Assembly (NCBI GenBank): GCA_943355005.1
Contig: CALRDV010000005.1
Location: 4,999-68,998 of the forward strand
DNA: 64,000 nucleotides
DNA from: Patescibacteria group bacterium
Lineage (GTDB): Bacteria > Patescibacteriota > Microgenomatia > UBA1400 > MFAQ01
Direction: 5' to 3'
In this document: positions 42,903 through 63,852 of the stretch, in pieces
How the letters are laid out: the number at the start of each line of letters is the position of its first letter
How positions within the stretch are numbered: the stretch's first letter is position 1
Program-made: the position numbers and the translations under genes
The notes under the pieces: generated by a model
Told to the model about the DNA's origin: nothing
Seen by the model: the letters and a program-made list of their open reading frames with translations, nothing else
Databases searched by the model: none

Positions 42903-44084
42903 ATGAAAAAACTTCCTATCGCCGTCATTATCATCCCCACGTATAACGAAGCTGATTCAATTGGAAAGATGATCGACCATCTTTTTACTGTCACATTCCC
43001 AATAATTAAAAATTGGGACTGTAAGGTATTGGTGGTAGACGACACGTCCCCGGATGGCACATACAAGGTTGTTCAGGCCAAGCAAAAACAATTTAAGAAT
43101 TTATTTTTATCACTCAGCGCCAAGAAAACCGGAATCGGCGGGGCTTACGTTCGAGGATTCCGCTACTCTATGACGGAGCTTCGTGCAGATGTCGTCATTG
43201 AGATGGATGGCGACTTTCAGCACCCACCTAGACTGGTTACCAAGCTTTTAAAAGCAATCGATGATGGTTATGATTATGTAATCGGCTCCAGAAAAATAAA
43301 GGGCGGTACAAATCCAAAAGGATGGGGATTCAAAAGATTGTTCTTTAGTGAGATTGGTGGACTTGTAGCCAGAATGATCATGTTTTTCCCGACCAGAAAA
43401 TTCTTTAAAATCACCGACCCCACCAGTGGTCTAAGAGCATCAAGAGTCAAAGGTTTTGTCGACACCATGGACATGGATCATCTATATTCCAAAAGCTTTG
43501 GTTACAAGATGGAGTTTTTGTTTCAGATGATCGGACTGGGAGCAAGATACACAGAGATACCTCTCCAATTCAATGTTCGCAATGCTGGCGAATCCAAGAT
43601 CGAACCACAAACAGCAAAAGAGATATTTAAAACAGTTTTCTTGTTGAGATTAAATGATCCGGTTACCAAAAAGTTTATCAAGTTCGGCACTATTGGTTTC
43701 TGCGGTTTTATTATTAACAAAATAGGCTTAGATGTCTTTGCTACCATTCTCGGTAGGTTTATTGATAGTGTTGGTGTTCGAAACACTTTTGCAAACGCTA
43801 TGGCCGCCGAACTATCCATAATTAATAATTTTACGCTCAACAATCGTTGGACCTTCAAGAAAGAGCGCCTTCCTTGGGGCAAGAAATTAATTCGTAAATT
43901 CACCCAGTTCAATCTCAGCTCTGTCTTCTCCGGAATTATTATGCCTAGCTTGGTTATCGGAGCCGGCACCCATTTCTTTGGAGATGACTACCGTACCTTT
44001 TTCTTGATTGGAGCAGTCATCTTTATCACTGTCCCGCTAAATTGGTTCATTTATAACGTCTTTATCTGGAAAAAGATTCAGTGA
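42903..44084 (+). CDS. Polyprenol-phosphate glycosyltransferase (GT2, Dpm1/GtrB-like) fused to a GtrA-like TM domain
   Basis: It has IAVIIIPTYNEADSI and DGDFQHPP in the GT2 part. The C-terminal four TM helices contain IKFGTIGFCGFIINKIG...NNFTLNNRWTF (the GtrA family signature). Confidence 0.8.
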   Translation: MKKLPIAVIIIPTYNEADSIGKMIDHLFTVTFPIIKNWDCKVLVVDDTSPDGTYKVVQAKQKQFKNLFLSLSAKKTGIGGAYVRGFRYSMTELRADVVIEMDGDFQHPPRLVTKLLKAIDDGYDYVIGSRKIKGGTNPKGWGFKRLFFSEIGGLVARMIMFFPTRKFFKITDPTSGLRASRVKGFVDTMDMDHLYSKSFGYKMEFLFQMIGLGARYTEIPLQFNVRNAGESKIEPQTAKEIFKTVFLLRLNDPVTKKFIKFGTIGFCGFIINKIGLDVFATILGRFIDSVGVRNTFANAMAAELSIINNFTLNNRWTFKKERLPWGKKLIRKFTQFNLSSVFSGIIMPSLVIGAGTHFFGDDYRTFFLIGAVIFITVPLNWFIYNVFIWKKIQ

Positions 44085-45184
44085 AAAAAACTCGCTTAGA
44101 GTTATTGGACATTTCGAGAGGCATTTTTTTGTTTGGAATTCTTGTCGATCATCTTCGAAATTTCCCAAGCATATTTTTATTTCTCACTGGTGGTGCCTAT
44201 CTCTGGGTTTCTTTTGCTGCCGGTTTTTTTGTCATTTCCGGGTTCATCTATGGTTACAAGAATAGTCTTCAAGAGATTTCTTTCGGATCACTTGTCAAGC
44301 ATGCTTGGTCAAGGGCTGCAAAGCTTTACTTCTGGGGAATTGCTCTGACTCTTCTCTTTACCGTTTGGGGAAATTATCTTCCGGTCGAGATCAGAAAGAT
44401 GGGCCTCTGGGAAATTGAAACAAGCAACCTTTTCCGGCTGGTAGTCGATACGCTAACTTTGAAATATATCTACGGTTGGGCCGACTTCTTGCCATATTAC
44501 AGTCTGTATTTATTATTTTCACCCTTCGTGCTTTTGGGAATCAAATACCTCAAAACTTGGCCAATCTTACTTATGAGTTTAATTGTTTGGTATTTTAGGG
44601 GTGACAATATTTACTTGGCTTACCAGATAGTTTTTTTCGCCGGTATGGCTTTGGGCCTAAATCACTCCTATCTGGTCGAAAGATTATTGAAGCTATCCAG
44701 CCATACCAGGAAGGTTCTATTAAAGTTGGTAATCTTTTTGTTTATTGGTTCACTGGTACTATGTCTAATCTCAGTTTTCTTCATAAAAAACATTTCAAAT
44801 TTAGGTATCTCCCTGAATAGCTCAATCATGTATTTTATACATAAAAACAATGTTCTAAATTTGTACTTCGATAAGAAATTACTTGGGTTTGGACGATTAC
44901 TATTAATACCTATTTGGTATGGAGCATTCTTTATATTTATGCACAAGAATATCAATTCTTTTAAGAACTTCATTGGAGAAGCGCTTCGAGATTGGGGTAA
45001 AAACTCTCTTTTTGTCTATATTCTTCATTCCATTATTGTCTTTGCAAGTCCATATTTGATATTCAAAATAGGGCTAAATGGTTTTTGGGATTACACTCTA
45101 TACGTTGGACTGGTTCTATTACTTGTAAATTATGTCGTCAAGATCAAATCTAGGTTCTGGCCCTACAAAACTATCTTCGATTGA
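44081..45184 (+). CDS. Acyltransferase-3 / OpgC-like polytopic membrane protein
   Basis: It has about 10 TM helices and begins LLDISRGIFLFGILVDHL, which is typical of the acyltransferase_3 family. Confidence 0.45.
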   Translation: MKKTRLELLDISRGIFLFGILVDHLRNFPSIFLFLTGGAYLWVSFAAGFFVISGFIYGYKNSLQEISFGSLVKHAWSRAAKLYFWGIALTLLFTVWGNYLPVEIRKMGLWEIETSNLFRLVVDTLTLKYIYGWADFLPYYSLYLLFSPFVLLGIKYLKTWPILLMSLIVWYFRGDNIYLAYQIVFFAGMALGLNHSYLVERLLKLSSHTRKVLLKLVIFLFIGSLVLCLISVFFIKNISNLGISLNSSIMYFIHKNNVLNLYFDKKLLGFGRLLLIPIWYGAFFIFMHKNINSFKNFIGEALRDWGKNSLFVYILHSIIVFASPYLIFKIGLNGFWDYTLYVGLVLLLVNYVVKIKSRFWPYKTIFD

Positions 45185-45189
45185 AGCAA

Positions 45190-46305
45190 TTATAAGTACG
45201 GAGCCCAATCTGCAATCGGTGCAGTATTATTCAGAAGGAAGTTCCAAGAGTATATTAAAATCGGCACTATCAGTAAACAGACAATAAATTTAAACTCTTT
45301 TTTTTGTATCATCTTATCCCAGCCAATTAGTACAAATGGAGCAATGGGTAAAATATATCTGCCGATATCTCTGTGAGCGATGAATAAAGTAGAGAGGAAA
45401 AAAAGTCCGGCGAAGAAATATTCGATATCCAGTTTCTTTTCTCTAAGTTTCATAATTCCAATTCCAAATACTAGCCATACCCAAATAATATCTTCAGACC
45501 AGAAACTGCCTACCCAGTTTTGACCATTAGGAGAGAATACACTAAATGGAGGCCAGAAAAGATGGATATTGTCTCCACTATTGAAATAAGCTAATACGTC
45601 TCCCGTTCTAACACCAAAGAACCAAAACAGAAGCGGAATTACCGCAAGCTGGATTAGTAGTGGCCAATATTTAAACAGAATCTTTTTCTCTTTAAATGAT
45701 TGAACTAAAGCAAAAATACCGTAAGCGGCGAGTAGTATAATCGCTGGACTTTTAGTAAGCTGAGCCAAGGCGGCCATGATACCCGCCATCAGAAAATTTT
45801 CTTTTTTGAAAGCATAGACACTGGCCAAGATAAAAAAGATAAACCACGGTTCCGGAGATCCTACGGCTCTTACGGCTACCCACCGGGCAGGCAAAATCAA
45901 GAAAGCCAGACATAGCCAAAGAGCATTTTTGCTTAATTTAAAATCAGTTGTGTACTTCAGCAACATCAGGTAGCAAAGCATCGAACCCAGCAAGGTTGCC
46001 ATCAGCATTGCGGTTGGACCTTTCATAAAAATATCAAACACAGAAATCACTGCCGGATATAGCGGAAAGTGAGCCGGGTAATACTCGGTAGGGAGAGGAC
46101 TTGAAAACTCTGTCTTGATTGCTTCTTTGTTGTACCAAGTTTTAGCCACAATCAAATAATTTGGTCCGTCAAAGTTCTGCCAAAGAGATTTGGTTCCTTC
46201 TGTGAAGTCCAAATTCCATCCGGGGAGATAGATCTTCAAGGCAAAAGGAGCCCAGACCAGCAAGGTAAAGAGTAAGGTAATCAACATTAAATAAGCTCGT
46301 TTCAT
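45190..46305 (-). CDS. Polytopic membrane protein (GT-C-like mannosyltransferase candidate)
   Basis: A minus-strand ORF of 371 aa with about 10 TM helices. The assignment is by context. Confidence 0.45.
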   Translation of the reverse strand: MKRAYLMLITLLFTLLVWAPFALKIYLPGWNLDFTEGTKSLWQNFDGPNYLIVAKTWYNKEAIKTEFSSPLPTEYYPAHFPLYPAVISVFDIFMKGPTAMLMATLLGSMLCYLMLLKYTTDFKLSKNALWLCLAFLILPARWVAVRAVGSPEPWFIFFILASVYAFKKENFLMAGIMAALAQLTKSPAIILLAAYGIFALVQSFKEKKILFKYWPLLIQLAVIPLLFWFFGVRTGDVLAYFNSGDNIHLFWPPFSVFSPNGQNWVGSFWSEDIIWVWLVFGIGIMKLREKKLDIEYFFAGLFFLSTLFIAHRDIGRYILPIAPFVLIGWDKMIQKKEFKFIVCLLIVPILIYSWNFLLNNTAPIADWAPYL

Positions 46306-47041: not shown

Positions 47042-47051
47042 TACTACCCCT

Positions 47052-47088
47052 CGTCATTGCGAGGAGCAAAGCGAAGTGGCAATCCAGG
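47052..47088 (+). repeat. Palindromic repeat, type 2 (CGTCATTGCGAGGAGCAAAGCGAAGTGGCAATCCAGG), intergenic
   Basis: It has the same termini as the other type 2 copies. Its interior is similar to the copy at 56376. Confidence 0.8.
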
Positions 47089-47097
47089 AAAACAAAC

Positions 47098-48597
47098 ATG
47101 AAAATACTTCAAAACATAAAGGACTTCGCCAAAAACCACAGACTTGAGTTTACTTTAATTTCTATAATTCTTCTGCTCGCTCTCACTCTCCGTCTGTATC
47201 GAATAGGCGACTTCCTAACCTTTCTGGGTGACGAAGGTCGAGATGTCCGTATCGTCAGGGATTTGATTACGAGGGGAAATCTTGTCTTCATTGGACCTCA
47301 GACTAGTATCGGGAATATGTATCTCGGTCCACTCTACTACTATATGATGGCTCCAGCTCTCCTCCTCTCCGGTCTGAATCCTGTTGGGCCGGCCGTGATG
47401 AATGCGCTTCTGGGCACTTTCACTATCTGGCTAACTTGGTTTGTGGCTCGGAAATGGTTCGGTAAATCTGCCGCTATTATCGCCGCTGGTTTGTATGCCA
47501 TCTCACCGGTCGCCATTATTTATTCCAGAGCTTCCTGGAATCCAAACCCCATGCCATTCTTCGCCCTGCTTTGTGTTTGGGGAATTTATGAAGTCTGGCA
47601 GAACAAAAAATATTTCTGGCTTCCTATTGTCGGAGTTTCTTTTGCCTTCGCGCTTCAGATGCATTATCTAGGATTGTTGCTTATCCCTACGTTGGGACTT
47701 TTTTGGCTCTTTTCCTTCAATCAAATCAAAAAAAATGTAGTACAAAAAAAGATTTTTGTCCGTCAAACACTGATAGCCATTGGCCTTTTCTTGCTCCTAA
47801 TGTCTCCACTTTTGTTGTTTGATATCAAGCACAATTGGATGAACTTCAACGCCTTTAAAGCTTTTTTCTCCGATCGTCAAACTACGGTAAATCTAAACCC
47901 GGTTAAATCAGACAGGTTCCTTCCGGTGATGCTTATGACGGTTTCCGACATGTTTTTAGCTAGACAAACTTTATTTGCTCCAATTGGCTTGGTGCTCACC
48001 TTACTACTTTCTATCTGGATTTATTTAAAGTCAAAGTGGAAAACACCCCTAAAGGTTCTCTTCCTTTGGCTTGGCTTGGCTATCTTAGGTCTTAGTGTCT
48101 ACAAACAGCACGTCTATATTCACTATTTAGGTTTTATTTATCCCGCTCTTTATTTACTTTTGGGCGCCTTACTCGGATTCTTGTTCGAACAGAAATTAGT
48201 TTTGAAAATATTATCTATTATTTTAGTAATATTCCTTTTTAGCTATTCCCTTATTTACAGTCCGATAAAAGAAACCCCAAACCGTCAGCTCTGGCGGACA
48301 GAAGCCGCCGTCGATCTTATTATTAAGGAGTCGTCTGGCCAGCCTTTTAACTTCGGACTTATTGCCAAACAGAACTACGACGAATCCTATCGATATTTTT
48401 TGGAAAACAAAAAGGCACCTGCTTTCAGAGGAGAAGATAAAATTACCGATCAGCTCTTTGTAATTTGTGAAGATGGTGACTCATGTGTACCGGAAGGCAA
48501 CACTGCTTATCAAATCGCTAAGTTTGGTCAGGCTCATGTGGTCGGCACTTGGAATATTGACTATCTCAAAATTTATCGTTTAACGCACTTCAAATGA
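47098..48597 (+). CDS. GT-C family glycosyltransferase (ArnT/PMT-like, GT39/GT83-like)
   Basis: It has 11-13 TM helices and an early periplasmic loop with the acidic motif FLGDEGRD, which resembles the GT-C DE/DD loop. Confidence 0.55.
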   Translation: MKILQNIKDFAKNHRLEFTLISIILLLALTLRLYRIGDFLTFLGDEGRDVRIVRDLITRGNLVFIGPQTSIGNMYLGPLYYYMMAPALLLSGLNPVGPAVMNALLGTFTIWLTWFVARKWFGKSAAIIAAGLYAISPVAIIYSRASWNPNPMPFFALLCVWGIYEVWQNKKYFWLPIVGVSFAFALQMHYLGLLLIPTLGLFWLFSFNQIKKNVVQKKIFVRQTLIAIGLFLLLMSPLLLFDIKHNWMNFNAFKAFFSDRQTTVNLNPVKSDRFLPVMLMTVSDMFLARQTLFAPIGLVLTLLLSIWIYLKSKWKTPLKVLFLWLGLAILGLSVYKQHVYIHYLGFIYPALYLLLGALLGFLFEQKLVLKILSIILVIFLFSYSLIYSPIKETPNRQLWRTEAAVDLIIKESSGQPFNFGLIAKQNYDESYRYFLENKKAPAFRGEDKITDQLFVICEDGDSCVPEGNTAYQIAKFGQAHVVGTWNIDYLKIYRLTHFK

Positions 48598-49148
48598 GTA
48601 ACACATTGCCTACTTCTCCACTGATTTGGCTTGATTTAGAATTCACCGACTTGGATGTCGACAAGGGGGTAATAGTTGAGATCGCAACTGTTGTAACGGA
48701 CGGTAATCTAAAGGTTCTTGGTACCGGTCCGGACATAGTCATTCACCAGCCGGAGTCAATTCTTACGACCATGGTCAAGTGGAATCAAAAACATTTTAGC
48801 GAGTCCGGCCTAATTACCGAGATTCGAAACTCTCAAGTTTCCGTGGCCCAAGCCGAAGAGGAAACCCTCATTTTTTTGAAAAAATATTGTGCACCTCACA
48901 CGGCTCTTTTGGCAGGGTCATCTGTTTATATCGATCGTGAATTTTTAAGGATATACATGCCAAATCTTTACGACTTTGTTCACTACAGAATAATTGACAC
49001 AAATACTTTAAAGGAGCTTATGCACCGCTGGTACCCCAGTATTCCCGATTATCCGAAGGTTGAGCCACATCGCTCTGCAGGAGACATTCTCGAGTCCATA
49101 GATGAGTTAAAATACTATCAGACCCAGATTTTTAAACTTAACTCATGA
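48594..49148 (+). CDS. orn: Oligoribonuclease (DEDDh 3'-5' exonuclease)
   Basis: It has IWLDLEFTDLD (Exo I), the Exo II/III regions, and HRSAGD with a downstream D. Its size of 184 aa is typical. Confidence 0.85.
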   Translation: MSNTLPTSPLIWLDLEFTDLDVDKGVIVEIATVVTDGNLKVLGTGPDIVIHQPESILTTMVKWNQKHFSESGLITEIRNSQVSVAQAEEETLIFLKKYCAPHTALLAGSSVYIDREFLRIYMPNLYDFVHYRIIDTNTLKELMHRWYPSIPDYPKVEPHRSAGDILESIDELKYYQTQIFKLNS

Positions 49149-53269: not shown

Positions 53270-54725
53270 CGCCCCATCGGTACTTGAAGTCCAAGAAGTA
53301 AAAAGACGGAGTATTTCCGGTGTCCTAGCTCTCATATCTCGTACTTTCATCATTCAAATTATCTCCTTTGTTGCCACCCTTGCTCTTACCATTTTTCTGG
53401 ACCCAAACACTTACGGAATCTTTTATCTTGTTTCTTCGGTCGTCAACTTTATGGCATATTTTTCCGACGTCGGTTTGGCCGCAGCACTAATTCAAAAAAA
53501 GGAAGCTATTACCAAGGAGGATCTCTCCACTACTTTTACTATTCAACAAATATTGGTTCTATCTCTGCTTACCATCTTGTTTGTCTTGTCTCCGATAATT
53601 CAAACTCAGTATCAAATTGATCAGTCAGGGATGTATCTACTTTATGCCATGGGTGTTTCTCTTTTCTTGAGTTCGCTAAAGACAATACCTTCCATCATGT
53701 TGGAACGGGAAATCAAATTCAATAAACTAATTCTTCCCCAAGTTCTGGAAACTCTTGCTTTCAATTTTGTCGCCGTCTTCTTTGCGTGGAAGGGTTTTGG
53801 AGTCACTGCTTTTACTTTTGCTGTTCTCGCAAGGGGAGTTGTCGGTCTGATTGCTTTATATATTGTCTACCCATGGAAGCCAATTTTCGGCATCAATCGC
53901 TCCTCGCTTTCTCATTTACTAAAGTTTGGTTTACCATACCAAGTAAATACATTTTTAGCTGTATTGAAAGATGATGGTATGACGATTATTCTGACCAGAA
54001 TAATTGGAACACAGGGACTGGGCTATATTGGTTGGGCCTCCCGGTGGGCCGGTTTACCTCTAAGAATTGTGATGGATAACTTGACTAGAGTTTCCTTCCC
54101 AACTTTTGCGAGACTCCAGCACGACAAAGAGAGATTGGCTAAAGCCGTCGAGATTAGTCTTAAATATATGTGTCTTTTAACTTTTCCGATTCTTGCCGGG
54201 ATGGGTTTCCTGGCTTTGCCCATGACCCACTTGATTCCACGGTACGCCAAATGGCTTCCGGCCATTATTCCTCTTTACCTATATCTGTACAATTCTGCTT
54301 GGGCCAGCATTAGCACCAGTCTGACAAATCTACTAAATGCTACCGGTCATATAAAATCTACTTTCAAACTCATGCTTATGTGGACAGGTCTCACTTGGGC
54401 CATTATGCCAATATTGTCGATTAAATTTGGGTATATGGGAGTTGCTTTTGCTACCGGAATTATTGCCACTTCTTCCATAGTCACCATTATTATGGCCAAA
54501 CAACATGTCAACTTTAGTATGATAAATATAGTTAGAACTCCTCTTCTCGGATTACTTCCCATGATCTTCTGGCTCTACTTGTCAGTCGGCTCTATCGGTT
54601 CATACACTACCTTGGTCGGCATCATCATTACTTCTGCTATCATTTATTTTGGTTCAATATATATTTTGGAAGGCAAATTATTTTTTACGGATACGCTTAG
54701 TTACTTCAAGATCAAACATGTTTAG
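53247..54725 (+). CDS. Polysaccharide biosynthesis flippase (MOP superfamily, Wzx-like)
   Basis: It has 12-14 TM helices. The N-terminal MOP-type helices carry Arg/Lys (ISRTFIIQIISFVATLALT), and the size of 492 aa fits. Confidence 0.65.
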   Translation: MIENTPPDAPSVLEVQEVKRRSISGVLALISRTFIIQIISFVATLALTIFLDPNTYGIFYLVSSVVNFMAYFSDVGLAAALIQKKEAITKEDLSTTFTIQQILVLSLLTILFVLSPIIQTQYQIDQSGMYLLYAMGVSLFLSSLKTIPSIMLEREIKFNKLILPQVLETLAFNFVAVFFAWKGFGVTAFTFAVLARGVVGLIALYIVYPWKPIFGINRSSLSHLLKFGLPYQVNTFLAVLKDDGMTIILTRIIGTQGLGYIGWASRWAGLPLRIVMDNLTRVSFPTFARLQHDKERLAKAVEISLKYMCLLTFPILAGMGFLALPMTHLIPRYAKWLPAIIPLYLYLYNSAWASISTSLTNLLNATGHIKSTFKLMLMWTGLTWAIMPILSIKFGYMGVAFATGIIATSSIVTIIMAKQHVNFSMINIVRTPLLGLLPMIFWLYLSVGSIGSYTTLVGIIITSAIIYFGSIYILEGKLFFTDTLSYFKIKHV

Positions 54726-57700
54726 AAAACTATTAGTCATAGTCGCCATTATTTTCTTCAGTCTGCCCGGAAAAGCTTCAGCATTCAAGGCAGATACTTT
54801 TGTGACTTTTGCGAATCCTGTCCGCGGTCCGGAAAATTGGCAAGCGGGAAAGCAAGATCCCCTGGCTCTTCCGAAGTTTCAGTATGCCGAGTCTACTCCC
54901 TCCGCTTACCCCATCACCTGGCTACTTCGCTACGATGCAGTCCGAGATTCAACGATGTCCGCTTTTTTCAAGACTCTTTCGGAATCCGACAAGACTCAAA
55001 CCTTAGGTGCCTTTTTGGAGATTACTCCAAAGCTAGCGAGTGATTCGGATGTTTCATACCCTGCCGGCACTACTCCATTCAATGCCAATCGAATTTTCCT
55101 TTCCGGCTACACGACAGACCAAAGGACCAATCTGATCGACACCTTCATGGCAGCTTTCTTTGTGGAGTTCGGTTACTACCCTAAGTCGGTAGGGGCTTGG
55201 CACCTGGATAGTTATAGTCTGCAGTATCTTCAATCAAGATATTCCGTCCTTACTGCCATGAACTGCGACGACCAATACTCTACGGATAATTACCGGATTT
55301 GGGGAGGGTACTTGGGTAGTCCTTATTTCCCTGACAAAAACAATTCCTTAATTCCTGCGAACTCCTCTTCCAATCGAATCAATCTAGCTATGGTTCGCTG
55401 GGCTCAGCGTGATCTCTTTAACTTTTATGGATACCGATCCGAATCTTCTTACTCCGTACAGGTAAACGATTATCTGGCTCAAGGTCAAAACACCAAGTAT
55501 TTCGAAAAACTTTTAGGTCAATATTCTCAGAAGAAAATGAACGAGTTTACCTATATCAATATTGGTCTGGAAAACGACCACAGTCTACTTGAATACAAGT
55601 CCGAAATAAAAAATGTCTACAAACTACTCATTGCCAATCAGGGGACGTACAATCTCCGATTTACCTCTCTTTCTGATTTCGGTGATTGGTTCAAAGCTCG
55701 TTATCCGGAGAGCTCTCCGGCTTATTACTACGAGTCTACGGACCCACTCAGTGCCAGGTCGGGTAAGGTCTACTGGTACCAAAGTCCTTGGTATCGCATT
55801 GGCTTCAAATCCGAAAACGGTAGTACTAAAATCGTTGATTTCCGAGTCTACAATCGCAATGTTTTTGAGGATTATCTCCATACCCCAAATCAAGGTTTAA
55901 ATCTCTATCAGGAGATTCCGGCAGTCATCGATTCCGTCAAATGGCCAGGTACCGAAGCAGTATTGAGCTTTGATATGGAAAAAGCGACCTTTGTTTACTC
56001 GAAGCAGTGGGATTATTGGCAAGTTGCCTTTAAGTCCGGAAATCAAACTCTCACATTGTATCCAGACAAAATTTCCTTCACCGGTTTTTCGGCACCGTCA
56101 ATTTCATCCAAAGACGTAAAGTCTGTTTCCAAGAAAGACACTACCACCTGGGAACTAACTCCTTTCACGCCATTCCAAAAAACTTCCAAATTCACCTGGC
56201 TCTTCTGGCTAGTGGTTATCATTGCCGTGATCAAAATCATCAAAAGATTTAAAAATCCTCCTACTTCGTCATTGCGAGATTCGGTACACCGAACCGAAGC
56301 AATCTCGTCCACAAAAACATCCGTCATTGCGAGGATATTCCCGAAGCAATCTAGCTCATCAACCACTCCAGTATCCGTCATTGCGAGGAGCGAAGTGACG
56401 TGGCAATCCAGGAATTTACTTTTCGGCATTATCATCGCCCTCCTCGCCACCCTTACCGTCCTCCGAAACGGACTCCTTTATCCTTTTGGTATGGGTTTCT
56501 GGGGACCAAATGGACACGACGCCATTTTTCATCTTTCTCTAATCGAAAAATTCGCCACCAACCCCTTTAGTTTTGTTCACCCGCAAATTGCAGGGGAGAA
56601 GATAGCCAATTATCACTTTATTTTTGATTTTATTTCCGGACTTATTGTTAAACTCTTTGGAATATCATCTATTGATCTCTATTTTCGGATTTTCCCTGTC
56701 ATTGCCGGTATCGCTATCGTGTTTCTTCTTGATAAGCTTTTAAAACTCTGGAACTACAACGCTCAAGAAAGATTGCTAGCGATTTTTCTAGCCTTTTTAG
56801 CCGGTTCATTTGGCTTTATCTCCAAGCTCTTTGTGGGGCAGAGTATTTTTGCCGGGGAATCATCTTTCTGGTCCAATCAGTCTGTTTCCATATTTCTAAA
56901 CCCTCCCTACGCCCTCTCACTAATTGTGCTGTTAATTTTTTTACTTCAACTTTCTCGTCATTCCGGGCTTGACCCGGAATCCAGAAATTTGTCATTGCGA
57001 GGAGGTAATCCGACGTGGCAATCTACATCCATCAACCGCCATGATTATTTTCCCCTCATCCTCCTTGGCGCCCTCCTAGCCCAAACAAAAATTTACGCCT
57101 TTATCCTGCTTCTCGGCGCTCTACTATTTTCTAAGAGATACAAGCTCTTTATCGGAGTATTGGTATTAGGTGTTCTTATTTCTTTGCCCTTCACGACTCT
57201 TGGTGGACCGTCTCCGTTTCTTTTCTCACCTCTTTGGTTCCCCAGAAGTCTTTTTGCTTCTTTTGATCGCATGTATTGGCCACAGTTGGTTCAAGCTTGG
57301 CAAGCATACGAGGCTTCAGCGAATTTTGTAAAGTTGGCCTTAGTAAATCTTTTTGCTCTCGTAATTTTTCTTGTAGGCAATCTAGGAATGAGATGTTTTG
57401 GCTTATTGGAAGTAATTAAGACTAAGTCACAATCTGTCTCAGAATCTCTTGTCCGATGGATAATTCTTTTCGGCCTTATCACCCCCATACTTTTTGTCCA
57501 GAATATCAATCCCTGGAACACTATCCAGTTTATGTATTATTCTCTCTTTTTCTTAGCCCTCTTCACTGCCAAGTGGCTTTCAAAACAAAATATATTACTT
57601 TTTCTACCATTGGTATTTCTTGCCACTCTCACCTCCATTGGCACTCTCCAAGACTACATCGGTTTTTTCTCTGCTTCCAGAATTAGTTATTCCGAGCTCT

Positions 57701-58086
57701 TGGCTCTAGACAAATTAAGAGACCAATCAAAAGGAATTGTCCTGGCTCCGCTTTTTAATCAAGCCGAGTCAGGCGCAATTTTTGCCCCCAAGCCTTTGTA
57801 TTCTTATGTTTCCACGGCATATATCTCAGGATTGTCAGGTCAGCCTGAATATCTGGCAGACACAATAAATCTAGACATTACCGGCTTCAACTACACAGAC
57901 CAAGCTAGAGATATTCAACGCTTCTATGTGACAGGGGATAAGCAATGGGCTTTGGATTTCTTATCCAAGAACAAGATTAAATACGTCTACGAAACCCCAC
58001 TCCGGAAAATACATTTAGCTCCGGAGGATCTCAAACTCAAGAAAATCTTTGACTCAGGAGAAATAAACGTATATAAATTTAACTAA
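54718..58086 (+). CDS. Very large envelope protein: a periplasmic N-terminal domain of about 500 aa plus a polytopic membrane domain, containing five in-frame palindromic-repeat insertions
   Basis: The start was taken at MFRKLLVIVAIIFFSLPGKASA (a signal peptide), because the ORF start at 54649 overlaps the flippase gene. The repeats at 56267-56412 and 56956-57025 translate as SSLRDSVHRTEAISS, SVIARIFPKQSSS, SVIARSEVTWQSR, RHSGLDPESR and LSLRGGNPTWQST. Confidence 0.5.
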   Translation: MFRKLLVIVAIIFFSLPGKASAFKADTFVTFANPVRGPENWQAGKQDPLALPKFQYAESTPSAYPITWLLRYDAVRDSTMSAFFKTLSESDKTQTLGAFLEITPKLASDSDVSYPAGTTPFNANRIFLSGYTTDQRTNLIDTFMAAFFVEFGYYPKSVGAWHLDSYSLQYLQSRYSVLTAMNCDDQYSTDNYRIWGGYLGSPYFPDKNNSLIPANSSSNRINLAMVRWAQRDLFNFYGYRSESSYSVQVNDYLAQGQNTKYFEKLLGQYSQKKMNEFTYINIGLENDHSLLEYKSEIKNVYKLLIANQGTYNLRFTSLSDFGDWFKARYPESSPAYYYESTDPLSARSGKVYWYQSPWYRIGFKSENGSTKIVDFRVYNRNVFEDYLHTPNQGLNLYQEIPAVIDSVKWPGTEAVLSFDMEKATFVYSKQWDYWQVAFKSGNQTLTLYPDKISFTGFSAPSISSKDVKSVSKKDTTTWELTPFTPFQKTSKFTWLFWLVVIIAVIKIIKRFKNPPTSSLRDSVHRTEAISSTKTSVIARIFPKQSSSSTTPVSVIARSEVTWQSRNLLFGIIIALLATLTVLRNGLLYPFGMGFWGPNGHDAIFHLSLIEKFATNPFSFVHPQIAGEKIANYHFIFDFISGLIVKLFGISSIDLYFRIFPVIAGIAIVFLLDKLLKLWNYNAQERLLAIFLAFLAGSFGFISKLFVGQSIFAGESSFWSNQSVSIFLNPPYALSLIVLLIFLLQLSRHSGLDPESRNLSLRGGNPTWQSTSINRHDYFPLILLGALLAQTKIYAFILLLGALLFSKRYKLFIGVLVLGVLISLPFTTLGGPSPFLFSPLWFPRSLFASFDRMYWPQLVQAWQAYEASANFVKLALVNLFALVIFLVGNLGMRCFGLLEVIKTKSQSVSESLVRWIILFGLITPILFVQNINPWNTIQFMYYSLFFLALFTAKWLSKQNILLFLPLVFLATLTSIGTLQDYIGFFSASRISYSELLALDKLRDQSKGIVLAPLFNQAESGAIFAPKPLYSYVSTAYISGLSGQPEYLADTINLDITGFNYTDQARDIQRFYVTGDKQWALDFLSKNKIKYVYETPLRKIHLAPEDLKLKKIFDSGEINVYKFN
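56267..56412 (+). repeat. Three tandem type 2 palindromic repeats in frame within a CDS
   Basis: The copies lie at 56267-56306, 56322-56354 and 56376-56412. Confidence 0.85.
56956..57025 (+). repeat. Type 1 plus type 2 palindromic repeats in tandem, in frame within a CDS
   Basis: 56956-56984 is CGTCATTCCGGGCTTGACCCGGAATCCAG. 56990-57025 is GTCATTGCGAGGAGGTAATCCGACGTGGCAATCTAC. Confidence 0.85.
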
Positions 58087-58089: not shown

Positions 58090-59007
58090 ATGTCAAAAAC
58101 GAAAATCTCAGCTGTCGTCAATACACGCAATGAAGCGGATAATATTTTTGATTGTCTAAAAACTTTGGGTTTTTGCGATGAGATCGTGGTGGTTGATATG
58201 GAATCTGAGGATAATACAAAAGAAATAGCCAAGGAGTTTACAGATCGCATTTATGATCACAAGAAAACAGGCTTTGTTGAACCTGCCAGAAACTTTGCTA
58301 TCAAAAAAGCACTTGGGGATTGGATACTTATTGTCGATGCAGACGAGAGAATCCCAAAATCTTTAGCTGTTAAGCTAATCGAAATCGCCAATCTGGACCA
58401 AGCGGATTTTGTCAGGGTCCCCAGAAAAAATATTGTTTTTGGTCAATGGCTTCAGCATTCTCGTTGGTGGCCGGATTACAATATCCGCTTCTTCAAAAAA
58501 GATTCTGTCGAGTGGCAGGAAGAAATTCACTCTGTTCCTATTACGTATGGCAATGGTCTAAATTTGGAGCAAGAATCGGCGATGGCGATAGAGCATCACC
58601 ATTACAGAAGTATCGATGAATACTTTGTTCGTTCTCTTCGATACTCAAATCAACAAGCAAAAGAGCTTATTGAATCGGGTTACAAATTCGAGGCTGCCGA
58701 TTTAATTAAGAAACCCATGGGTGAATTTCTTTCCCGTTTTTTTGCAGGAGAAGGTTACAAGGATGGTCTTCATGGTTTGATAGTTGCCATGCTGCAGTTT
58801 TTCTCCATTTTACTTATCTATCTCAAGGTTTGGCAGTTTGAGGAGCGAAAGCCTATCAAAGGACGCGAGTTTACCCGTGTTTGGCAAGCAGCGTTTTTGG
58901 ATAAATTCAAAGAATTCCGATACTGGTATTTAACTGTTCTCATTCAGAATTCACGCTCAAAAACCGAGGCATTTTTCCTCAAGCTCCGTCGCCGTCTCCA
59001 AAAATAA
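58090..59007 (+). CDS. Glycosyltransferase family 2
   Basis: It has ISAVVNTRNEADNI, VVVDMESEDNT and IVDADERI (DxD). Confidence 0.75.
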   Translation: MSKTKISAVVNTRNEADNIFDCLKTLGFCDEIVVVDMESEDNTKEIAKEFTDRIYDHKKTGFVEPARNFAIKKALGDWILIVDADERIPKSLAVKLIEIANLDQADFVRVPRKNIVFGQWLQHSRWWPDYNIRFFKKDSVEWQEEIHSVPITYGNGLNLEQESAMAIEHHHYRSIDEYFVRSLRYSNQQAKELIESGYKFEAADLIKKPMGEFLSRFFAGEGYKDGLHGLIVAMLQFFSILLIYLKVWQFEERKPIKGREFTRVWQAAFLDKFKEFRYWYLTVLIQNSRSKTEAFFLKLRRRLQK

Positions 59008-59240: not shown

Positions 59241-59246
59241 TTCACC

Positions 59247-59634: not shown

Positions 59635-60564
59635 ATGAAAATAGCTTTTATTACGGTTAACTTTCACAGTGACGAGGACACTATAGAGGTTGTTTCTCAG
59701 CTTGAGAAGAATGTTTTGCCAAAAGATACCGAGATGACCATCTACTGTGTCGACAACTCCGTTTCCCATGAACTCAAGGAAAGTCTTTCAAAATACCCCC
59801 ATTCTGTCTACCTAAATTCTCCCGGCAATATCGGGTTCGCTGCCGGCAACAATATTGGCTTTAAGCAGGCAATAAAAGACAAGGTCGATATTATCGTTCT
59901 GATAAACAACGATACTGTCGTTCCTTCAGATCTGGTACAGAATATTTTAAATTCTCCAATAGAAAGGGACGATATTGGCGTCGTTGGAGGGCTCATTTAT
60001 TTTGCCAAGGGTTTTGAATTTCACGCTAACTACAAGTCATCGGATCTTGGCAAAGTCATTTGGTATGCCGGGGGCAAACATGATTGGAACAATGTCTACG
60101 CCAGCCATGTCGGAGTAGACGAAGTCGACAAAGGTCAGTACGACAAAATCAGAGACACGGATTTTGTTACCGGTTGTTTGTTCATAGTTCGTAGAGAGGT
60201 TCTGGAAACAGTGGGTTTGTTTGACGAACGATATTGTTTGTATTTCGAAGACTCCGATCTTTGTGCTCGCATCAAAAAAGCCGGCTTCCGGCTTGTTGTA
60301 GATCCACAAGTTAAGCTTTGGCACAAAGTGGCCCAAAGTTCAGGTATCGGCTCTCCCTTAAATGATTACTTTTTAACTCGCAACCGTTTACTTTTTGGGA
60401 CTACGTACGCCACAGCAAGAACCAGGTTTGCTCTCATCAGAGAAGCCATCAAAAAATTATTCAGCGGCACTCCGGCCCAAAAAATTGCCGTCAGAGATTT
60501 TTTCACCGGCAATTTAGGATGGGGTAGCTGGAACAAAAAAGTATCACTGCCGATTAAACAATAA
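59635..60564 (+). CDS. Glycosyltransferase family 2 (rhamnosyltransferase-like)
   Basis: It has IAFITVNFHSDEDT, VLINNDTVV, YFEDSDLCARIKKAGF and a GT2 fold. Confidence 0.8.
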   Translation: MKIAFITVNFHSDEDTIEVVSQLEKNVLPKDTEMTIYCVDNSVSHELKESLSKYPHSVYLNSPGNIGFAAGNNIGFKQAIKDKVDIIVLINNDTVVPSDLVQNILNSPIERDDIGVVGGLIYFAKGFEFHANYKSSDLGKVIWYAGGKHDWNNVYASHVGVDEVDKGQYDKIRDTDFVTGCLFIVRREVLETVGLFDERYCLYFEDSDLCARIKKAGFRLVVDPQVKLWHKVAQSSGIGSPLNDYFLTRNRLLFGTTYATARTRFALIREAIKKLFSGTPAQKIAVRDFFTGNLGWGSWNKKVSLPIKQ

Positions 60565-60566
60565 AT

Positions 60567-61364
60567 ATGAAATTATCAATTATTATCCTTGCTCGAAACG
60601 TTGCGGAAGAGATAGTTCCGGCAATCAAATCTTCCCAATTTGCCGATGAGGTTATTGTCGTCGATACCGGCTCCACGGATGGGACACAGGAAGTCTGCCG
60701 AAAGTTGGGGGTAAGACTAGTTCAATCCCCTGGAGATAGTTTTGCCAAGTGGCGCAACGATGGTGCAAAGTCCGCCAGAGGTGAATGGCTCTTGTACCTC
60801 GACTCCGATGAGCGTATCCCGGTTAAACTTGCCAAGGAAGTTTTGGCCACAATCGATTCCACCGAATTTTCTGCCTTTACCATTAGCCGCTATGAAGTAT
60901 TCTTGGGTAAACATCTAAATCACTGGGGGGACCCAAGGGTCCTAAGGCTTATGAGAAAAAATTCTCTTAAGCGTTGGGAGGGTAAGCTTCATGAGCAGCC
61001 AAAGATTGTAGGAAAGGTTGGAGATCTTCGTCAGCAAATGGTCCATTTGTCTCACAAAAATATCGATGAAAAAGTACACAGTACTTTAGCCTGGTCAAGA
61101 ATCGAAGCCAAAATGCTTCTGGACGCCGAACATCCTCCCATGGCGGGCTGGCGTTTTATTCGAATAATGTTGACCGAGTTTTGGGATAGATGTATCAAGC
61201 AAGGTTTGTGGCGAGATGGGACCGAGGGCTGGATAGAAATAATTTATCAAATGTTCAGTAAGTACATGACTTACGAACGTCTCTGGGAAATGCAGCGCAA
61301 ACCCTCACTAAAAGAAACCTACAAAAACATCGACAAACAAATACTAGAAGAATGGGAAAAATAA
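60567..61364 (+). CDS. Glycosyltransferase family 2
   Basis: It has LSIIILARNVAEEI, VVVDTGSTDGT and YLDSDERI. Confidence 0.75.
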   Translation: MKLSIIILARNVAEEIVPAIKSSQFADEVIVVDTGSTDGTQEVCRKLGVRLVQSPGDSFAKWRNDGAKSARGEWLLYLDSDERIPVKLAKEVLATIDSTEFSAFTISRYEVFLGKHLNHWGDPRVLRLMRKNSLKRWEGKLHEQPKIVGKVGDLRQQMVHLSHKNIDEKVHSTLAWSRIEAKMLLDAEHPPMAGWRFIRIMLTEFWDRCIKQGLWRDGTEGWIEIIYQMFSKYMTYERLWEMQRKPSLKETYKNIDKQILEEWEK

Positions 61365-62791
61365 ATATCTTCGGATTTGTAAAAAAGTATCAATTTTTTA
61401 TTGCCATCGGAATTATAGTTTTCATCTTTTACACCTTCAATCTAAATAGAAGTACTAGATTTATCTGGGATGAATCTAGAGCTTTGGTGGATATGCATCG
61501 GATTTGGGAACAAAAATTAATCACCTTTGTCGGTCCAATCTCGGAAGACAACTTAGAGATGTTCCCTTCACTTAGTTATTATATGTATCTTCCGGGAGCT
61601 ATTCTCACCAAATTTGATCCTCTGGGTCCTGTATACATGGCTGTATTATTTGGAATGTTTGCTTGGATTATATTCACTATCGTAATAGTCAAAAAAATAG
61701 GAATTGGCCTTAAATCATTCCTGTTTTCATTATTTGTTGGTATTCTAAATCCGGTTTTAATAGCCTCTCGATGGGCCTGGAATCCCAACCCGGTAATTTT
61801 TTGGATGATGCTATTCATTTCTTCTTTGTTTTTCGAAACTCCAATTGTTCTGTTTCTTGGCGGAGTGTCACTTGGAGCCACACTATACCACCACTATCTT
61901 GCTGCATTTGGGGTAATCCCAGCTCTAATTTTTCTACCGGTATTCTATAAAAATAATAAACATATTTTTAGAAACATTGGTTTTACAATTTCAGGATTCA
62001 TTTTTTCTATTATTCCATTCGCTCTTTTTGAGATTAAAAATCATTATTTCTTAAACTCTGCAAGTTTTTTGGCATCAAATCAAAAATCATTTACTACATT
62101 TTCTATAATCGGATATTGGGAAAGACTATGGAACTCCATAGTCATTTTTGCAGCGATGTTTTTTCCGAACAACCTTTTCTTTACAATTTTTTGTATTGCT
62201 ATGTTTACAGGATTATTTTTAATTTTCAAAAGGGATAACACGATTAGGTATGCATTTCTATCGTTGGTGTTTTCATTCTTATTATTTGGCTTTGTAAGAG
62301 TTACATATTCTCATTACCAATATATTCAGGTGGGATTTGCCCTTCTATTTGTATTTGGCTATCTAATGGTGACCAAGAGCATGTTTGGAAAGTTCGCTAT
62401 CTCCCTTCTCTTAGTTAGCGCACTGTTTATGGGAATTAGGCAAATAAATCAATTTACCTGGCAAGGGGACATCGATGCTGTCAGGAAAATTTCCAGCATT
62501 ATTTCCTTGGAAACTGAGTCAAAAGTGAATATTGCCGCAATATCGAGTGCGGACCCAAATACTACGGGCCAAAAGTATAGGGACATGCTCTTGATAGGAG
62601 GAAAGACTTTGGATGCTTACAATAAGTATCCCGAGGATAAAGTTCTCTATGTCGTATCAAACAGTCTTGATCAAGCAGAAATTAGAACAGACCCCGCTTG
62701 GGAGATGCAGCCGTTTCGAGGCGCTATAATTACCCATACCTGGAAAGTGAGTAATTATCCGACATATCTATATCGTTTTGAAAAAATATGA
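61352..62791 (+). CDS. GT-C family membrane glycosyltransferase (ArnT/PMT-like)
   Basis: It has 12 or more TM helices, an early-loop WDESR acidic motif and a C-terminal soluble domain. Confidence 0.5.
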   Translation: MGKINIFGFVKKYQFFIAIGIIVFIFYTFNLNRSTRFIWDESRALVDMHRIWEQKLITFVGPISEDNLEMFPSLSYYMYLPGAILTKFDPLGPVYMAVLFGMFAWIIFTIVIVKKIGIGLKSFLFSLFVGILNPVLIASRWAWNPNPVIFWMMLFISSLFFETPIVLFLGGVSLGATLYHHYLAAFGVIPALIFLPVFYKNNKHIFRNIGFTISGFIFSIIPFALFEIKNHYFLNSASFLASNQKSFTTFSIIGYWERLWNSIVIFAAMFFPNNLFFTIFCIAMFTGLFLIFKRDNTIRYAFLSLVFSFLLFGFVRVTYSHYQYIQVGFALLFVFGYLMVTKSMFGKFAISLLLVSALFMGIRQINQFTWQGDIDAVRKISSIISLETESKVNIAAISSADPNTTGQKYRDMLLIGGKTLDAYNKYPEDKVLYVVSNSLDQAEIRTDPAWEMQPFRGAIITHTWKVSNYPTYLYRFEKI

Positions 62792-63852
62792 AAAAAGCTT
62801 TACTCTTCGACCCATACATGGACACTCTTGGAGGAGGGGAGAGGTACGTTCTCTCCTTCGCTTTGGGTCTGATTAAAAACGGTTACTCCGTCACATTGGC
62901 CTGGAACTCCGACAAAGAGTTGAGAGAAGCCGAAAAACGTTTTGGCCTGGACTTCTCTAAAATTATGGTGGATTCCGCCGCTTACGATCTTTGTAGTCAG
63001 AAATCAGCCTACGCCGAAAGGCTAAACTTCACCAAGGACTATGATCTGATTTTTTGGGTCAGTGATGGCAGTTTGCCTTTTTTGTTCTCCAAAAACAATC
63101 TTATTCATCTTCAAGTTCCATTCAAAAAGTTTGGTTCCAATGCTGTCATTAATAATCTAAAAACTGTATTTGTAAAAAAGTTTGTCTACAACTCCAACTT
63201 TACCAAAGAAGTTTTGGAAAAACAGCTGCCGGCTTCTAAAGGTTTTGTTCTATATCCTCCCATCGATATCGATAAATTATCTTCAGGTGAGAAAGAAAAT
63301 GTCATTCTCTCAGTTGGTCGTTTCGATTCACCTTCTCATAGTAAACGCCAAGATGTTTTGGTTGAAGCTTTTAAAATTCTTTCAAAGAAAAACAAAGATT
63401 TTAAGTTGGTTCTAGCCGGAGGATTAGTTGGAGATGAAACTCTTATGAATAAAATTAAAGCTTCAGCCGAAGGATTGAATATTGAGTTCGTTATCAATCC
63501 GGACTTTACCGAGCTAAAGTCGATGTATTCCAAGTCTAAGTTTTATTGGCACGCCGCCGGCTACGAAGTTGACGAGATGAAAGATCCGGAAAAGGTTGAG
63601 CACTTTGGTATGACCACGGTGGAGGCCATGGCATCCGGTGCAGTCCCCATTGTGATATCCAAAGGTGGCCAGAAGGAAATTGTGACTCCGGAGACGGGAT
63701 TCCTATGTGAAACTCCTGAAGAAATTGCAGACAAAACTCTTTTGCTAATTTCAGACCAAGTAAAGCTTACCGAAATGTCCAAGACTTGCTTAAATAGGTC
63801 AAAGGTCTTTTCTATTGATAATTTTTATGAAAAAATTAAGGTCTTATTATGA
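62788..63852 (+). CDS. Glycosyltransferase family 4 (GT-B)
   Basis: The C-terminal domain reads EHFGMTTVEAMASGAVPIVISKGGQKEIV, which is the E-x7-E region typical of GT4. Confidence 0.75.
   Translation: MKKALLFDPYMDTLGGGERYVLSFALGLIKNGYSVTLAWNSDKELREAEKRFGLDFSKIMVDSAAYDLCSQKSAYAERLNFTKDYDLIFWVSDGSLPFLFSKNNLIHLQVPFKKFGSNAVINNLKTVFVKKFVYNSNFTKEVLEKQLPASKGFVLYPPIDIDKLSSGEKENVILSVGRFDSPSHSKRQDVLVEAFKILSKKNKDFKLVLAGGLVGDETLMNKIKASAEGLNIEFVINPDFTELKSMYSKSKFYWHAAGYEVDEMKDPEKVEHFGMTTVEAMASGAVPIVISKGGQKEIVTPETGFLCETPEEIADKTLLLISDQVKLTEMSKTCLNRSKVFSIDNFYEKIKVLL

Follow-up and report, generated by a model that had tools for sequence, protein, structure and literature searches.

The 64,000-nucleotide stretch analysed here (positions 4,999 to 68,998 of the forward strand of contig CALRDV010000005.1, assembly GCA_943355005.1; in the following, the window) stems from a member of Candidatus Collierbacteria (Microgenomates, candidate phyla radiation, CPR) with a genome of ~1 Mb, and encodes eight complete and one truncated polytopic membrane protein which sequence profiles and predicted structures assign to the GT-C-type glycosyltransferases (GTs), in the case of 45190(-), encoded on the minus strand, only probably. 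Proteins are named after the window position at which their gene starts. Together with three GT2s of the polyprenyl-phosphate sugar synthase type, a Wzx-type flippase, further GT2s and GT4s and a set of rhamnose biosynthesis genes, these GT-Cs would, with a probability of about 0.6, act on the outer face of the membrane to assemble or decorate a conserved, core genome-encoded envelope glycopolymer, using polyprenyl-phosphate sugars as donors. From enzyme fold and family, gene order and conservation we infer the donors, the flipping step, the acceptor and the product. The type of machinery is known; unusual is the multiplication of GT-Cs, the genes of which total 13,854 nt or 21.6% of the window, and the conservation of the machinery among relatives.

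Pfam and NCBIfam profile scans of all large open reading frames (ORFs) provided the annotation of the window, in which 55 ORFs of at least 150 aa, nearly all on the plus strand, were found (Table 1), including all ORFs named in a first-pass annotation that had been made from the sequence alone. The region 42903-63852 forms a compact operon-like array with most gene junctions overlapping or shorter than 60 nt; same-strand overlaps amount to 14 nt for 49145/49893, 13 nt for 60567/61352 and, further upstream, 8 nt for 22445/23943.

GT-C features, among them the polytopic membrane domain, are used here as defined previously (PMC11127046). Hydropathy analysis predicts 8-13 hydrophobic segments in every GT-C candidate, to be compared with the ~7-13 transmembrane (TM) helices expected for GT-C enzymes. 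Five of the proteins belong to the Pfam PMT_2 superfamily, the gathering scores being 26.1 bits for PF13231 (PMT_2) and 22.7 bits for PF02366 (PMT). The orthologue profiles of 47098, 49893 and 51425 are mutually related (hhalign 98.7%, 97.7% and 85.8%), with the 51425 profile matching the 47098 family at 97.7%, and 61352 is a clear paralogue of 47098 by blastp and hhalign. As for 22445, its family profile matches that of the 47098 family (hhalign 96.3%, E 1.6e-9), PF13231 is carried by 8 of the 120 best homologues among the matches listed, and one homologue is a GT2-GT-C fusion. For ORF 63849, which begins at the end of the window, the closest relative encodes a 577-aa protein whose N-terminus is 64% identical; this protein in turn matches the 47098 family (hhalign 99.9%). 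The shortest candidate, 45190(-), probably is a GT-C as well, as suggested by an alignment with the 49893 family across its full length (hhalign 85%), by weak Pfam matches in its family (PF02366 in 5 of 23 members, PF13231 in 1 of 23) and by a match to NCBIfam AZOBR_p60025 ('cell surface glycopolymer formation') of 41 bits. Searches of PDB sequences with 47098 and with the 45190 family profile gave no match.

The loop after the first TM helix, presumably on the extracytoplasmic side, contains conserved acidic residues in all seven GT-C families inspected, the set comprising the complete GT-Cs other than 22445. Besides the motifs of 47098, 49893 and 51425 (Table 1), such are the WDES of 61352, read directly from the sequence, an invariant DG within an FDGPN motif in 45190(-), YNDARSH, invariant in the 23943 family, and GHD..H, invariant in the 54715 family behind the first GT-C helix. 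The first loops of 47098, 49893 and 61352 each contain a DE dipeptide. The oligosaccharyltransferase motif WWDxG, also in the form W[WY]D[YWF]G, is absent from all eight complete GT-C proteins in a regular expression search.

Two of the GT-Cs, 23943 and 54715, belong to types that are absent from Pfam. No Pfam match was found in 23943 nor in its 120 homologues listed, the family profile did not match PDB sequences, and hhalign against the PMT_2 families remained below 15% probability and provided no connection. The GT-C assignment of 23943 comes solely from its AlphaFold2 model, a helical bundle (pLDDT 75.5), for which 17 of 17 Foldseek matches in the PDB at E <=0.001 are GT-C enzymes. Among those are DPY19, STT3, ArnT (TM-score 0.52/0.51), PglB and ALG9, and the weaker, high-probability matches are also nearly all GT-C (Pmt4, AftB, Emb, ALG3). 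The family is well conserved, with 62-85% identity across Collierbacteria, Woesebacteria and Gottesmanbacteria.

The second of the two, with 1145 aa in the ORF starting at 54649 and a probable start at 54715 followed by a signal-like helix, equally lacks a Pfam or NCBIfam match and an hhalign connection to the PMT_2 families (probability <15%). Its AlphaFold2 model, based on an alignment of 41 homologues (pLDDT 88.4, pTM 0.86), predicts a helical bundle in the membrane part, where residues ~560-1123 match AglB (Foldseek 3e-7), STT3, DPY19, AftA and PglB, preceded by a barrel whose residues 27-481 match 3LM3 (DUF3863, 'putative glycoside hydrolase/deacetylase'; Foldseek E 3e-11) and, more weakly, CE4/ArnD-type barrels including HP0310 and ArnD. 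Searched exhaustively, 1.84 billion representatives yielded ~45 representative clusters with the fused architecture and many proteins with either half alone. Recognized from the predicted structure only, 54715 is a GT-C in a new domain fusion. Within the N-terminal domain (residues 1-500 of the alignment) Asp, Glu, Arg and Trp are conserved, and no invariant or near-invariant His is present; a role as ArnD/CE4-type metal-dependent deacetylase, for which the Asp-His-His triad would have to be conserved, is unsupported. An assignment of 54715 or 23943 as STT3-type oligosaccharyltransferase was rejected, as both proteins are devoid of WWDxG and their likeness to AglB/STT3 is at the fold level.

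The first-pass annotation had proposed the GT-C type for seven polytopic proteins with acidic first loops (22445, 23943, 47098, 49893, 51425, 61352 and possibly 45190 on the minus strand). Pfam PMT_2, hhalign and Foldseek confirm all seven, 45190(-) only probably, and conserved acidic motifs are present in six of them and in 54715; its list had overlooked 54715 and 63849. A classification as transporters or O-antigen polymerases (Wzy), named there as the outcome that would overturn the proposal, was checked: the proteins classify with GT-C families, and no Wzy match was obtained.

Three GT2s of the array align with lipid-linked sugar synthases. The most complete case is 42903, which matches the Pyrococcus furiosus dolichol-phosphate-mannose synthase (DPMS) 5MLZ over catalytic and membrane domains (phmmer E 1e-40, residues 8-374 versus 26-359), carries DGD at the DXD position and combines in Pfam a GT2 domain with GtrA_DPMS_TM ('GtrA/DPMS, transmembrane domain'). 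The short GT2 46325 aligns with ArnC (residues 6-221 versus 6-216) and, also over its full length, with PpgS and haloarchaeal Dol-P-hexose transferase models, covering positions 12-219 of the 226-position PpgS profile. The alignment of 49145 with synthase models is less complete, including about two thirds of its length (DPMS 3-169). Hydropathy analysis finds zero hydrophobic segments in 46325 and 49145. Short synthases without TM helices are known, PpgS and human DPM1 being examples, so that the missing helices are compatible with membership of 46325 and 49145 in this class. As all NCBIfam synthase scores lie far under the equivalog cut-offs, sugar specificity is not readable from the profiles.

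The remaining GT2s 58090, 59635 and 60567, as well as 17026, 17931 and 18838 upstream, lack alignments of the DPMS/ArnC/GtrB/PpgS type, matching generic models over the N-terminal ~100 residues only or having other best families; 58090 and 60567 are mutual paralogues with 30% identity. Consequently, of six GT2s that had been considered Dpm1-like in the first-pass annotation, 42903, 46325 and 49145 hold, whereas 58090, 59635 and 60567 are ordinary GT2s, and the GtrA fusion seen in 42903 is the TM domain of an archaeal-type DPMS, the synthase's own membrane anchor as judged from the alignment, and gives no evidence of a fused flippase. Neither does each GT-C have a partner GT2, as had been stated there, since synthase-type GT2s adjoin 45190(-), 47098 and 49893, whereas 22445, 23943, 51425, 54715 and 61352 have no adjacent synthase. 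Between 42.9 and 64 kb, three synthases face at least six GT-Cs. In mycobacteria, one mannose donor feeds many GT-Cs.

A Wzx-type flippase, GT4s and a full rmlABCD set for dTDP-L-rhamnose, also part of the initial proposal, are present as proposed. The rml families are the best NCBIfam matches of all four Rml proteins, RmlB alone passing its curated cut-off (470 versus 365 bits) and RmlA being C-terminally short with 247 aa. Given the presence of GT-Cs, three synthase-type GT2s, Wzx, GT4s and rml genes, a logic by which donors are synthesized inside, flipped and used by GT-Cs outside, as suggested in the first-pass annotation, is the best reading of these enzyme classes. The sole sizeable gap of the array, between 58090 and 59635, holds a pair of small ORFs of 71 and 123 aa (59025-59618) to which no function could be assigned; in the closest relative, a 99-aa ORF is found there.

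An ArnT-like modification of membrane or host-derived lipids, by which the GT-Cs would decorate lipid head groups, could also be read from these matches, with ArnC near the top for 46325, ArnT for 23943 and an ArnD-like fold for the N-terminal domain of 54715. These similarities are at the fold or superfamily level and common to all GT-C systems, ArnA/ArnB-type genes do not accompany them, and the number of distinct GT-Cs, together with the rhamnose and GT4 genes, better fits a complex glycan, which leaves lipid head group modification a small chance.

Where the locus recurs bears on the nature of its product. The 47098 protein matched 79 loci in species-representative genomes, the closest (56-79% identity) in Candidatus Collierbacteria and mislabelled Collierbacteria-like metagenome-assembled genomes, the remoter ones (33-38% identity) in Levybacteria and other Patescibacteria. 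tblastn of window proteins against these loci showed that ~35 Collierbacteria-type loci keep the order 40067, 40826, trmD(-), 42903, 45190(-), 46325, 47098, orn, 49145, 49893, 51425, 53247, 54649, 58090, which is partly retained also in one Paceibacterota locus (L076), and that a 42903-type GT2 is located immediately upstream of a 47098-type GT-C in ~35 Levybacteria-type and other loci. The Wzx-type protein 53247 is among the best conserved gene products (73-90% identity in loci with the window's order, ~60-70% in remoter loci). The housekeeping genes orn and trmD, which sit within or flank the glycosyltransferase array, keep their position in relatives. As synteny extends to ~35 relatives and orn/trmD are enclosed, the locus is part of the core genome rather than a variable O-antigen island, and the conserved order with a conserved Wzx argues for an invariant core polymer and against a variable antigen. 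Genes for a further PMT_2 protein and two YfhO proteins extend the cluster in the closest relative.

The same conservation weighs on the question whether a conventional Wzx/Wzy O-antigen or capsule locus is encoded, some of the polytopic proteins being Wzy or ligases. With a Wzx-type flippase, several GT2s and GT4s and rmlABCD, the gene content is reminiscent of such loci, and Wzy proteins can be divergent enough to defeat profile searches. However, for each polytopic candidate a profile or a structure provides the tie to GT-C families; 61352 as the missing Wzy is ruled out by its clear paralogy to 47098, and 45190 was set aside, as the hhalign result and the weak PMT/PMT_2 matches lean towards GT-C. 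Scans of the window ORFs and of 10 kb downstream in the closest relative detected no Wzy or O-antigen ligase, including Wzy_C, no initiating phosphoglycosyltransferase, with neither a Bac_transf nor a Glycos_transf_4 (WecA/MraY-type) match, no LCP-type ligase and no ABC exporter, and WaaL ranks only 46th with a probability of 0.18 among the structural matches of 23943. Of Wzx, Wzy and initiating transferase, the components of this pathway, Wzx alone was found, and a chain-length regulator is likewise missing. A core, syntenic locus with housekeeping genes and a conserved Wzx shows the reverse of what marks variable O-antigen loci, and we consider a Wzx/Wzy locus highly improbable.

In the proposed extracytoplasmic pathway, the cytoplasmic GT2 synthases 42903 (DPMS type), 46325 and 49145 would load single sugars from nucleotide sugars onto polyprenyl phosphate. 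The lipid-linked sugars would move to the outer leaflet, with 53247 (MOP) and the membrane domain of the synthase as candidate flippases, and there the GT-Cs 45190(-), 47098, 49893, 51425, 54715, 61352 and 63849, plus the upstream 22445 and 23943, would transfer them to acceptors. In parallel, the soluble GT2s and GT4 58090, 59635, 60567 and 62788 together with rmlABCD would probably build a rhamnose-containing lipid-carried oligosaccharide flipped by the Wzx-type protein. The most likely acceptor would be a polysaccharide or lipoglycan that is conserved and wall-associated, with extension and decoration taking place outside the membrane in a way comparable to mycobacterial lipomannan and arabinan building or to the decoration of Gram-positive rhamnose polysaccharides and teichoic acids. 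The many GT-Cs, the few synthases, the core-genome position and the polysaccharide-type neighbours favour a glycopolymer as main acceptor. The logic of extracytoplasmic glycosylation from polyprenyl-phosphate sugars, including three-component systems, has been summarized (PMC11127046).

Upstream of rmlABCD, 22445 and 23943 belong to a module of their own. Their conserved partner 25498, a membrane-anchored protein without Pfam, NCBIfam or PDB match, always follows the 23943-type GT-C, and in three further loci its position is occupied by a gene for 337-428 aa. A Woesebacteria locus encodes orthologues of 22445, 23943 and 25498 with 31%, 65% and 46% identity, respectively, followed by a homologue of 26796 with T/S-rich stalk, LAATG sorting signal and fn3 domain; a sortase is also present there. 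The module order (giant GT2/GT4, variable genes, 22445-like, 23943-like, 25498-like) recurs in four Microgenomates loci beyond the window, found in the neighbourhoods of 23943 homologues, in two of which a giant GT2/GT4 of ~1540 aa heads the module. The variable genes code for GT2/GT4, deacetylase, methyltransferase, APH/choline-kinase-type kinase, CDP-alcohol phosphatidyltransferase and cytidylyltransferase; kinases of the choline/aminoglycoside type and CDP-alcohol phosphatidyltransferase are typical of glycopolymer decoration. Judged by eye, motifs of 25498 such as ILGEFGAP and NYWTSFGG hint at a glycosidase similar to clan GH-A.

This module bears on protein O-glycosylation as a rival reading, by which Pmt-like GT-Cs would glycosylate Ser/Thr-rich stalks of sortase-anchored proteins, pilins or the collagen-like protein. 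The S/N-rich LATTG protein 26796-27419 is followed by two sortases, the arrangement of the triad with an LAxTG protein and sortase recurs in Woesebacteria, a sortase comes after the triad in three of the four further loci, and the window encodes type IV pilins besides the collagen-like protein. Moreover, PMT_2 reaches its cut-off in three proteins, PF02366 in 49893 only, and the first-loop DE fits as well. On the other hand, PMT_2 is a broad family which takes in ArnT-like lipid- and glycan-modifying enzymes, the neighbours of 22445/23943 are of polysaccharide type (processive QRSRW GT2, CE4 deacetylase, CDP-alcohol phosphatidyltransferase), the triad precedes rmlABCD instead of a sortase in one of the four loci, and nine GT-Cs exceed the need of known bacterial O-mannosylation, which uses one Pmt. 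On balance, protein O-glycosylation is the less likely reading, yet a live rival for at least part of the machinery.

Several points weigh against a glycopolymer as the product. The PMT/PMT_2 families also include protein O-mannosyltransferases, and a sortase substrate with S/N-rich stalk is encoded near 22445/23943 both in the window and in Woesebacteria, so that some of the enzymes may have protein acceptors. Of the GT-C set 45190(-) is the weakest case, and 46325 and 49145 are devoid of the TM or interface helices of ArnC/GtrB, so that alignment is the sole basis of their presumed lipid-phosphate acceptor. Profile scans of the window, and of 10 kb downstream in the relative for GtrA, did not reveal a stand-alone GtrA/SMR flippase, the dedicated flippase that characterizes Gtr systems, and, with the initiating transferase, Wzy, LCP ligase and ABC exporter not found, the backbone pathway is incomplete as seen. 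The enzyme functions are predicted from sequence and structure, and the organism is uncultured.

Besides the glycosyltransferases, the array includes an accessory membrane O-acyltransferase, 44081, which sits in a low-GC stretch and was without counterpart in related loci by tblastn. Low GC content (34-36% versus 40-46% elsewhere) is also observed over 16000-24000, which includes the GT2 trio, deacetylase, GT4, short-chain dehydrogenase/reductase (SDR) and 22445, the latter much less conserved than 23943 (31% versus 65% to Woesebacteria). Low GC and weak conservation of 22445 suggest that 16000-24000 is a variable, possibly exchanged sub-module beside the conserved core. The SDR 21705 just upstream of 22445 was considered as DprE2-like epimerase, for which NCBIfam gave generic SDR matches only. 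The GT4 20530-21708 aligns over its full length with the archaeal N-glycosylation protein Agl16 (163 bits, below cut-off), and several other best matches in the window are archaeal glycosylation enzymes (DPMS, AglJ, Agl23-type). The 1593-aa protein at 12258-17039 is composed of an N-terminal domain, two TM helices, a GT2 of the processive type, as its QRSRW motif shows, a linker riddled with repeats, a membrane domain of ~10 TM helices that has no Pfam match, and a GT4; QRSRW is typical of processive synthases. In the BcsA-like synthase within 29548-34428 (139 bits to the CelA model), the C-terminal part is related to the pair of GH26-like proteins encoded next; this synthase-hydrolase fusion and the two paralogous hydrolases may constitute an exopolysaccharide system for beta-mannan or beta-glucan.

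Short palindromic repeats belonging to two families, CGTCATTGCGAG..hairpin..GCAATC and GTCATTCCGGGCTTGACCCGGAATCCA, are scattered between genes and, in frame, inside genes, namely those for the 1593-aa GT2/GT4, GT-C 51425 and the fusion 54715. There they give rise to inserts in loops, VIARSEVTWQS and SLRGTPWQSS being examples, which are missing in 66-86% of orthologues and modelled with low confidence by AlphaFold2. The repeats resemble in-frame mobile repeats of the Rickettsia palindromic element type.

Table 1. Features of the window, in window coordinates, with the main support for their assignment.
Feature	Position	Strand	Support or remark
Subtilase, collagen-like protein, type IV pilus set	0-12 kb		Pfam/NCBIfam
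GT2/GT4 fusion, 1593 aa	12258-17039		Pfam/NCBIfam
Three GT2s (17026, 17931, 18838), CE4 deacetylase, GT4 (20530), SDR (21705)	17-22.4 kb		
GT4	20530..21708		Pfam/NCBIfam
GT-C, PMT_2-related, 501 aa	22445..23950	+	NCBIfam LA_3751/LA_3752 putative GT 63.9 bits
Predicted GT-C fold, family without Pfam model, 523 aa	23943..25514	+	AlphaFold2 + Foldseek
Membrane-anchored extracytoplasmic protein, 408 aa, family unknown	25498..26724	+	conserved partner of the 22445/23943 pair
Secreted protein, S/N-rich stalk, LATTG + TM helix + basic tail (LAxTG type)	26796-27419		
Two sortases	27465-28608		after the 26796 protein
BcsA-like synthase + two GH26 proteins	29.5-34.4 kb		
rmlA, rmlB, rmlC, rmlD (dTDP-L-rhamnose)	35638..38887	+	NCBIfam 270, 470, 45, 108 bits
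Peptidyl-prolyl isomerase-like protein, nitroreductase, trmD	between rmlABCD and 42903		
trmD	41924-42610	-	284 bits
Polyprenyl-phosphate hexose synthase, archaeal DPMS type (GT2 + 4-TM domain)	42903..44084	+	phmmer versus PDB
Acyltransferase_3/OpgC-type membrane O-acyltransferase	44081..45184	+	PF10129 73 bits
Probable short GT-C, 371 aa, without C-terminal soluble domain	45190..46305	-	hhalign 85%
Short synthase-like GT2, 238 aa, without TM helices	46325..47041	+	ArnC, GtrB, DPMS best in PDB
GT-C, PMT_2 family, 499 aa	47098..48597	+	PF13231 49.8 bits; first-loop GDEGRD conserved
orn (oligoribonuclease)	48594..49148	+	NCBIfam PRK05359 206.9 bits versus cut-off 106
Short synthase-like GT2, 253 aa, without TM helices	49145..49906	+	DPMS 5MLZ, GtrB (5EKP), ArnC best in PDB
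GT-C, PMT_2/PMT family, 500 aa	49893..51395	+	PF13231 34.5, PF02366 24.4 bits, both above cut-off; VDE conserved
GT-C, distant PMT_2, 614 aa	51425..53269	+	PF13231 26.3 versus 26.1 bits; HDD conserved; two in-frame palindromic-repeat inserts
MOP/Wzx-type flippase	53247..54725	+	PF13440 176 bits; NCBIfam MOP flippase 120 bits
Signal/anchor helix + extracytoplasmic DUF3863-type glycoside-hydrolase/deacetylase-like barrel + predicted GT-C membrane domain + small C-terminal domain	54715..58086	+	
Ordinary GT2	58090..59007	+	generic GT2 models, N-terminal ~100 residues only
GT2, rhamnosyltransferase-like	59635..60564	+	TIGR01556 64.6 bits, below cut-off
Ordinary GT2	60567..61364	+	generic GT2 models, N-terminal ~100 residues only
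GT-C, 47098 paralogue, 479 aa	61352..62791	+	full-length blastp 1.5e-17; hhalign 99.8%; WDES in first loop
GT4	62788..63852	+	PF00534 89.8 bits
N-terminal part of 47098-type GT-C leaving the window	63849..64000	+	
Palindromic-repeat copies	56-85, 1552-1588, 11096-11125, 12138-12171, 14408-14582, 38917-38946, 41880-41909, 47052-47090, 51984-52017, 52475-52526, 56267-56306, 56376-56414, 56954-56983		

The envelope chemistry of CPR/Patescibacteria is essentially unknown. A literature search on Collierbacteria glycosyltransferases and CPR/Microgenomates mannosyltransferases found no paper treating these genes, and recent Patescibacteria overviews mention neither glycosyltransferases nor teichoic acids. 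A ~1-Mb genome which gives a fifth of a 64-kb core region to GT-Cs must depend on the product, which may serve host attachment, phage defence or envelope integrity. Synteny offers candidate enzyme-donor pairs, namely 46325 for 47098, 49145 for 49893 and 42903 for the 47098 type. As a bolder and still doubtful extension, Microgenomates (Collierbacteria, Woesebacteria and relatives) might build a conserved, possibly essential envelope glycan mostly outside the membrane with at least ten GT-Cs per ~1-Mb genome, a mycobacteria-like strategy in ultra-small monoderms, in which case the 23943 and 54715 types might found new GT families and the N-terminal domain of 54715 would process the glycan during transfer. 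If true, such an outer-face glycan provides an entry point to CPR envelope chemistry; if the locus is only as it appears, the gain is a glycan biosynthesis region of known logic with a well-supported annotation.

Among the known systems, the oligosaccharyltransferases STT3/AglB/PglB resemble 54715 and 23943 at the fold level, the window GT-Cs being without WWDxG. With the GT39 protein mannosyltransferases (yeast Pmt1/2/4, actinobacterial Pmt) the window shares PF02366/PF13231, the first-loop DE and the Pmt4 and Pmt1-Pmt2 structural matches, whereas a MIR domain was not found in the Pfam scan and eukaryotic PMTs are much longer than the window proteins. GT2 synthase, deacetylase fold and GT-C of the ArnC/ArnD/ArnT pathway recur here, the latter two fused in 54715. 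ArnD acts on the cytoplasmic face; the N-terminal domain of 54715, predicted by topology to be extracytoplasmic, differs also by the lack of an invariant His and with it of the canonical CE4/ArnD metal site. As to the P. furiosus DPMS, the likeness of 42903 extends over catalytic and TM domains; the host of 42903 being bacterial, its lipid presumably is of the undecaprenyl type.

Three-component systems (GtrA/GtrB/Gtr* of Shigella and Salmonella, the Gram-positive CsbB/GtcA/YfhO, the side chains of streptococcal and lactococcal rhamnose polysaccharides and the pentofuranose systems of PMC11127046) are alike in that a GT2 synthase adjoins a GT-C, with GtrB 5EKP among the top PDB matches of 46325/49145, YfhO proteins after the relative's cluster and rml genes nearby. 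Unlike in those systems, 46325 and 49145 have no GtrB C-terminal TM pair, 42903 possesses the DPMS-type 4-TM domain, a stand-alone GtrA/SMR is absent, three synthases face at least six GT-Cs, and the locus is core and invariant, neither phage-borne nor serotype-specific. Mycobacterial and corynebacterial assembly of lipomannan, lipoarabinomannan and arabinogalactan (Ppm1 with PimE/MptA/MptB/MptC; decaprenylphosphoryl arabinose with Emb/Aft) likewise relies on many GT-Cs in one genome that are fed by few polyprenyl-phosphate donors and build and branch an envelope glycan outside the membrane; the structural matches of the window GT-Cs include AftA, AftB and Emb, and 46325 aligns over its full length with the PpgS model. 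Sequence orthology to that system is not detectable and neither a UbiA-type phosphoribosyltransferase nor DprE1/2 is present, while, unlike in mycobacteria, it is a ~1-Mb CPR bacterium that here packs its GT-C and synthase genes into one conserved region.

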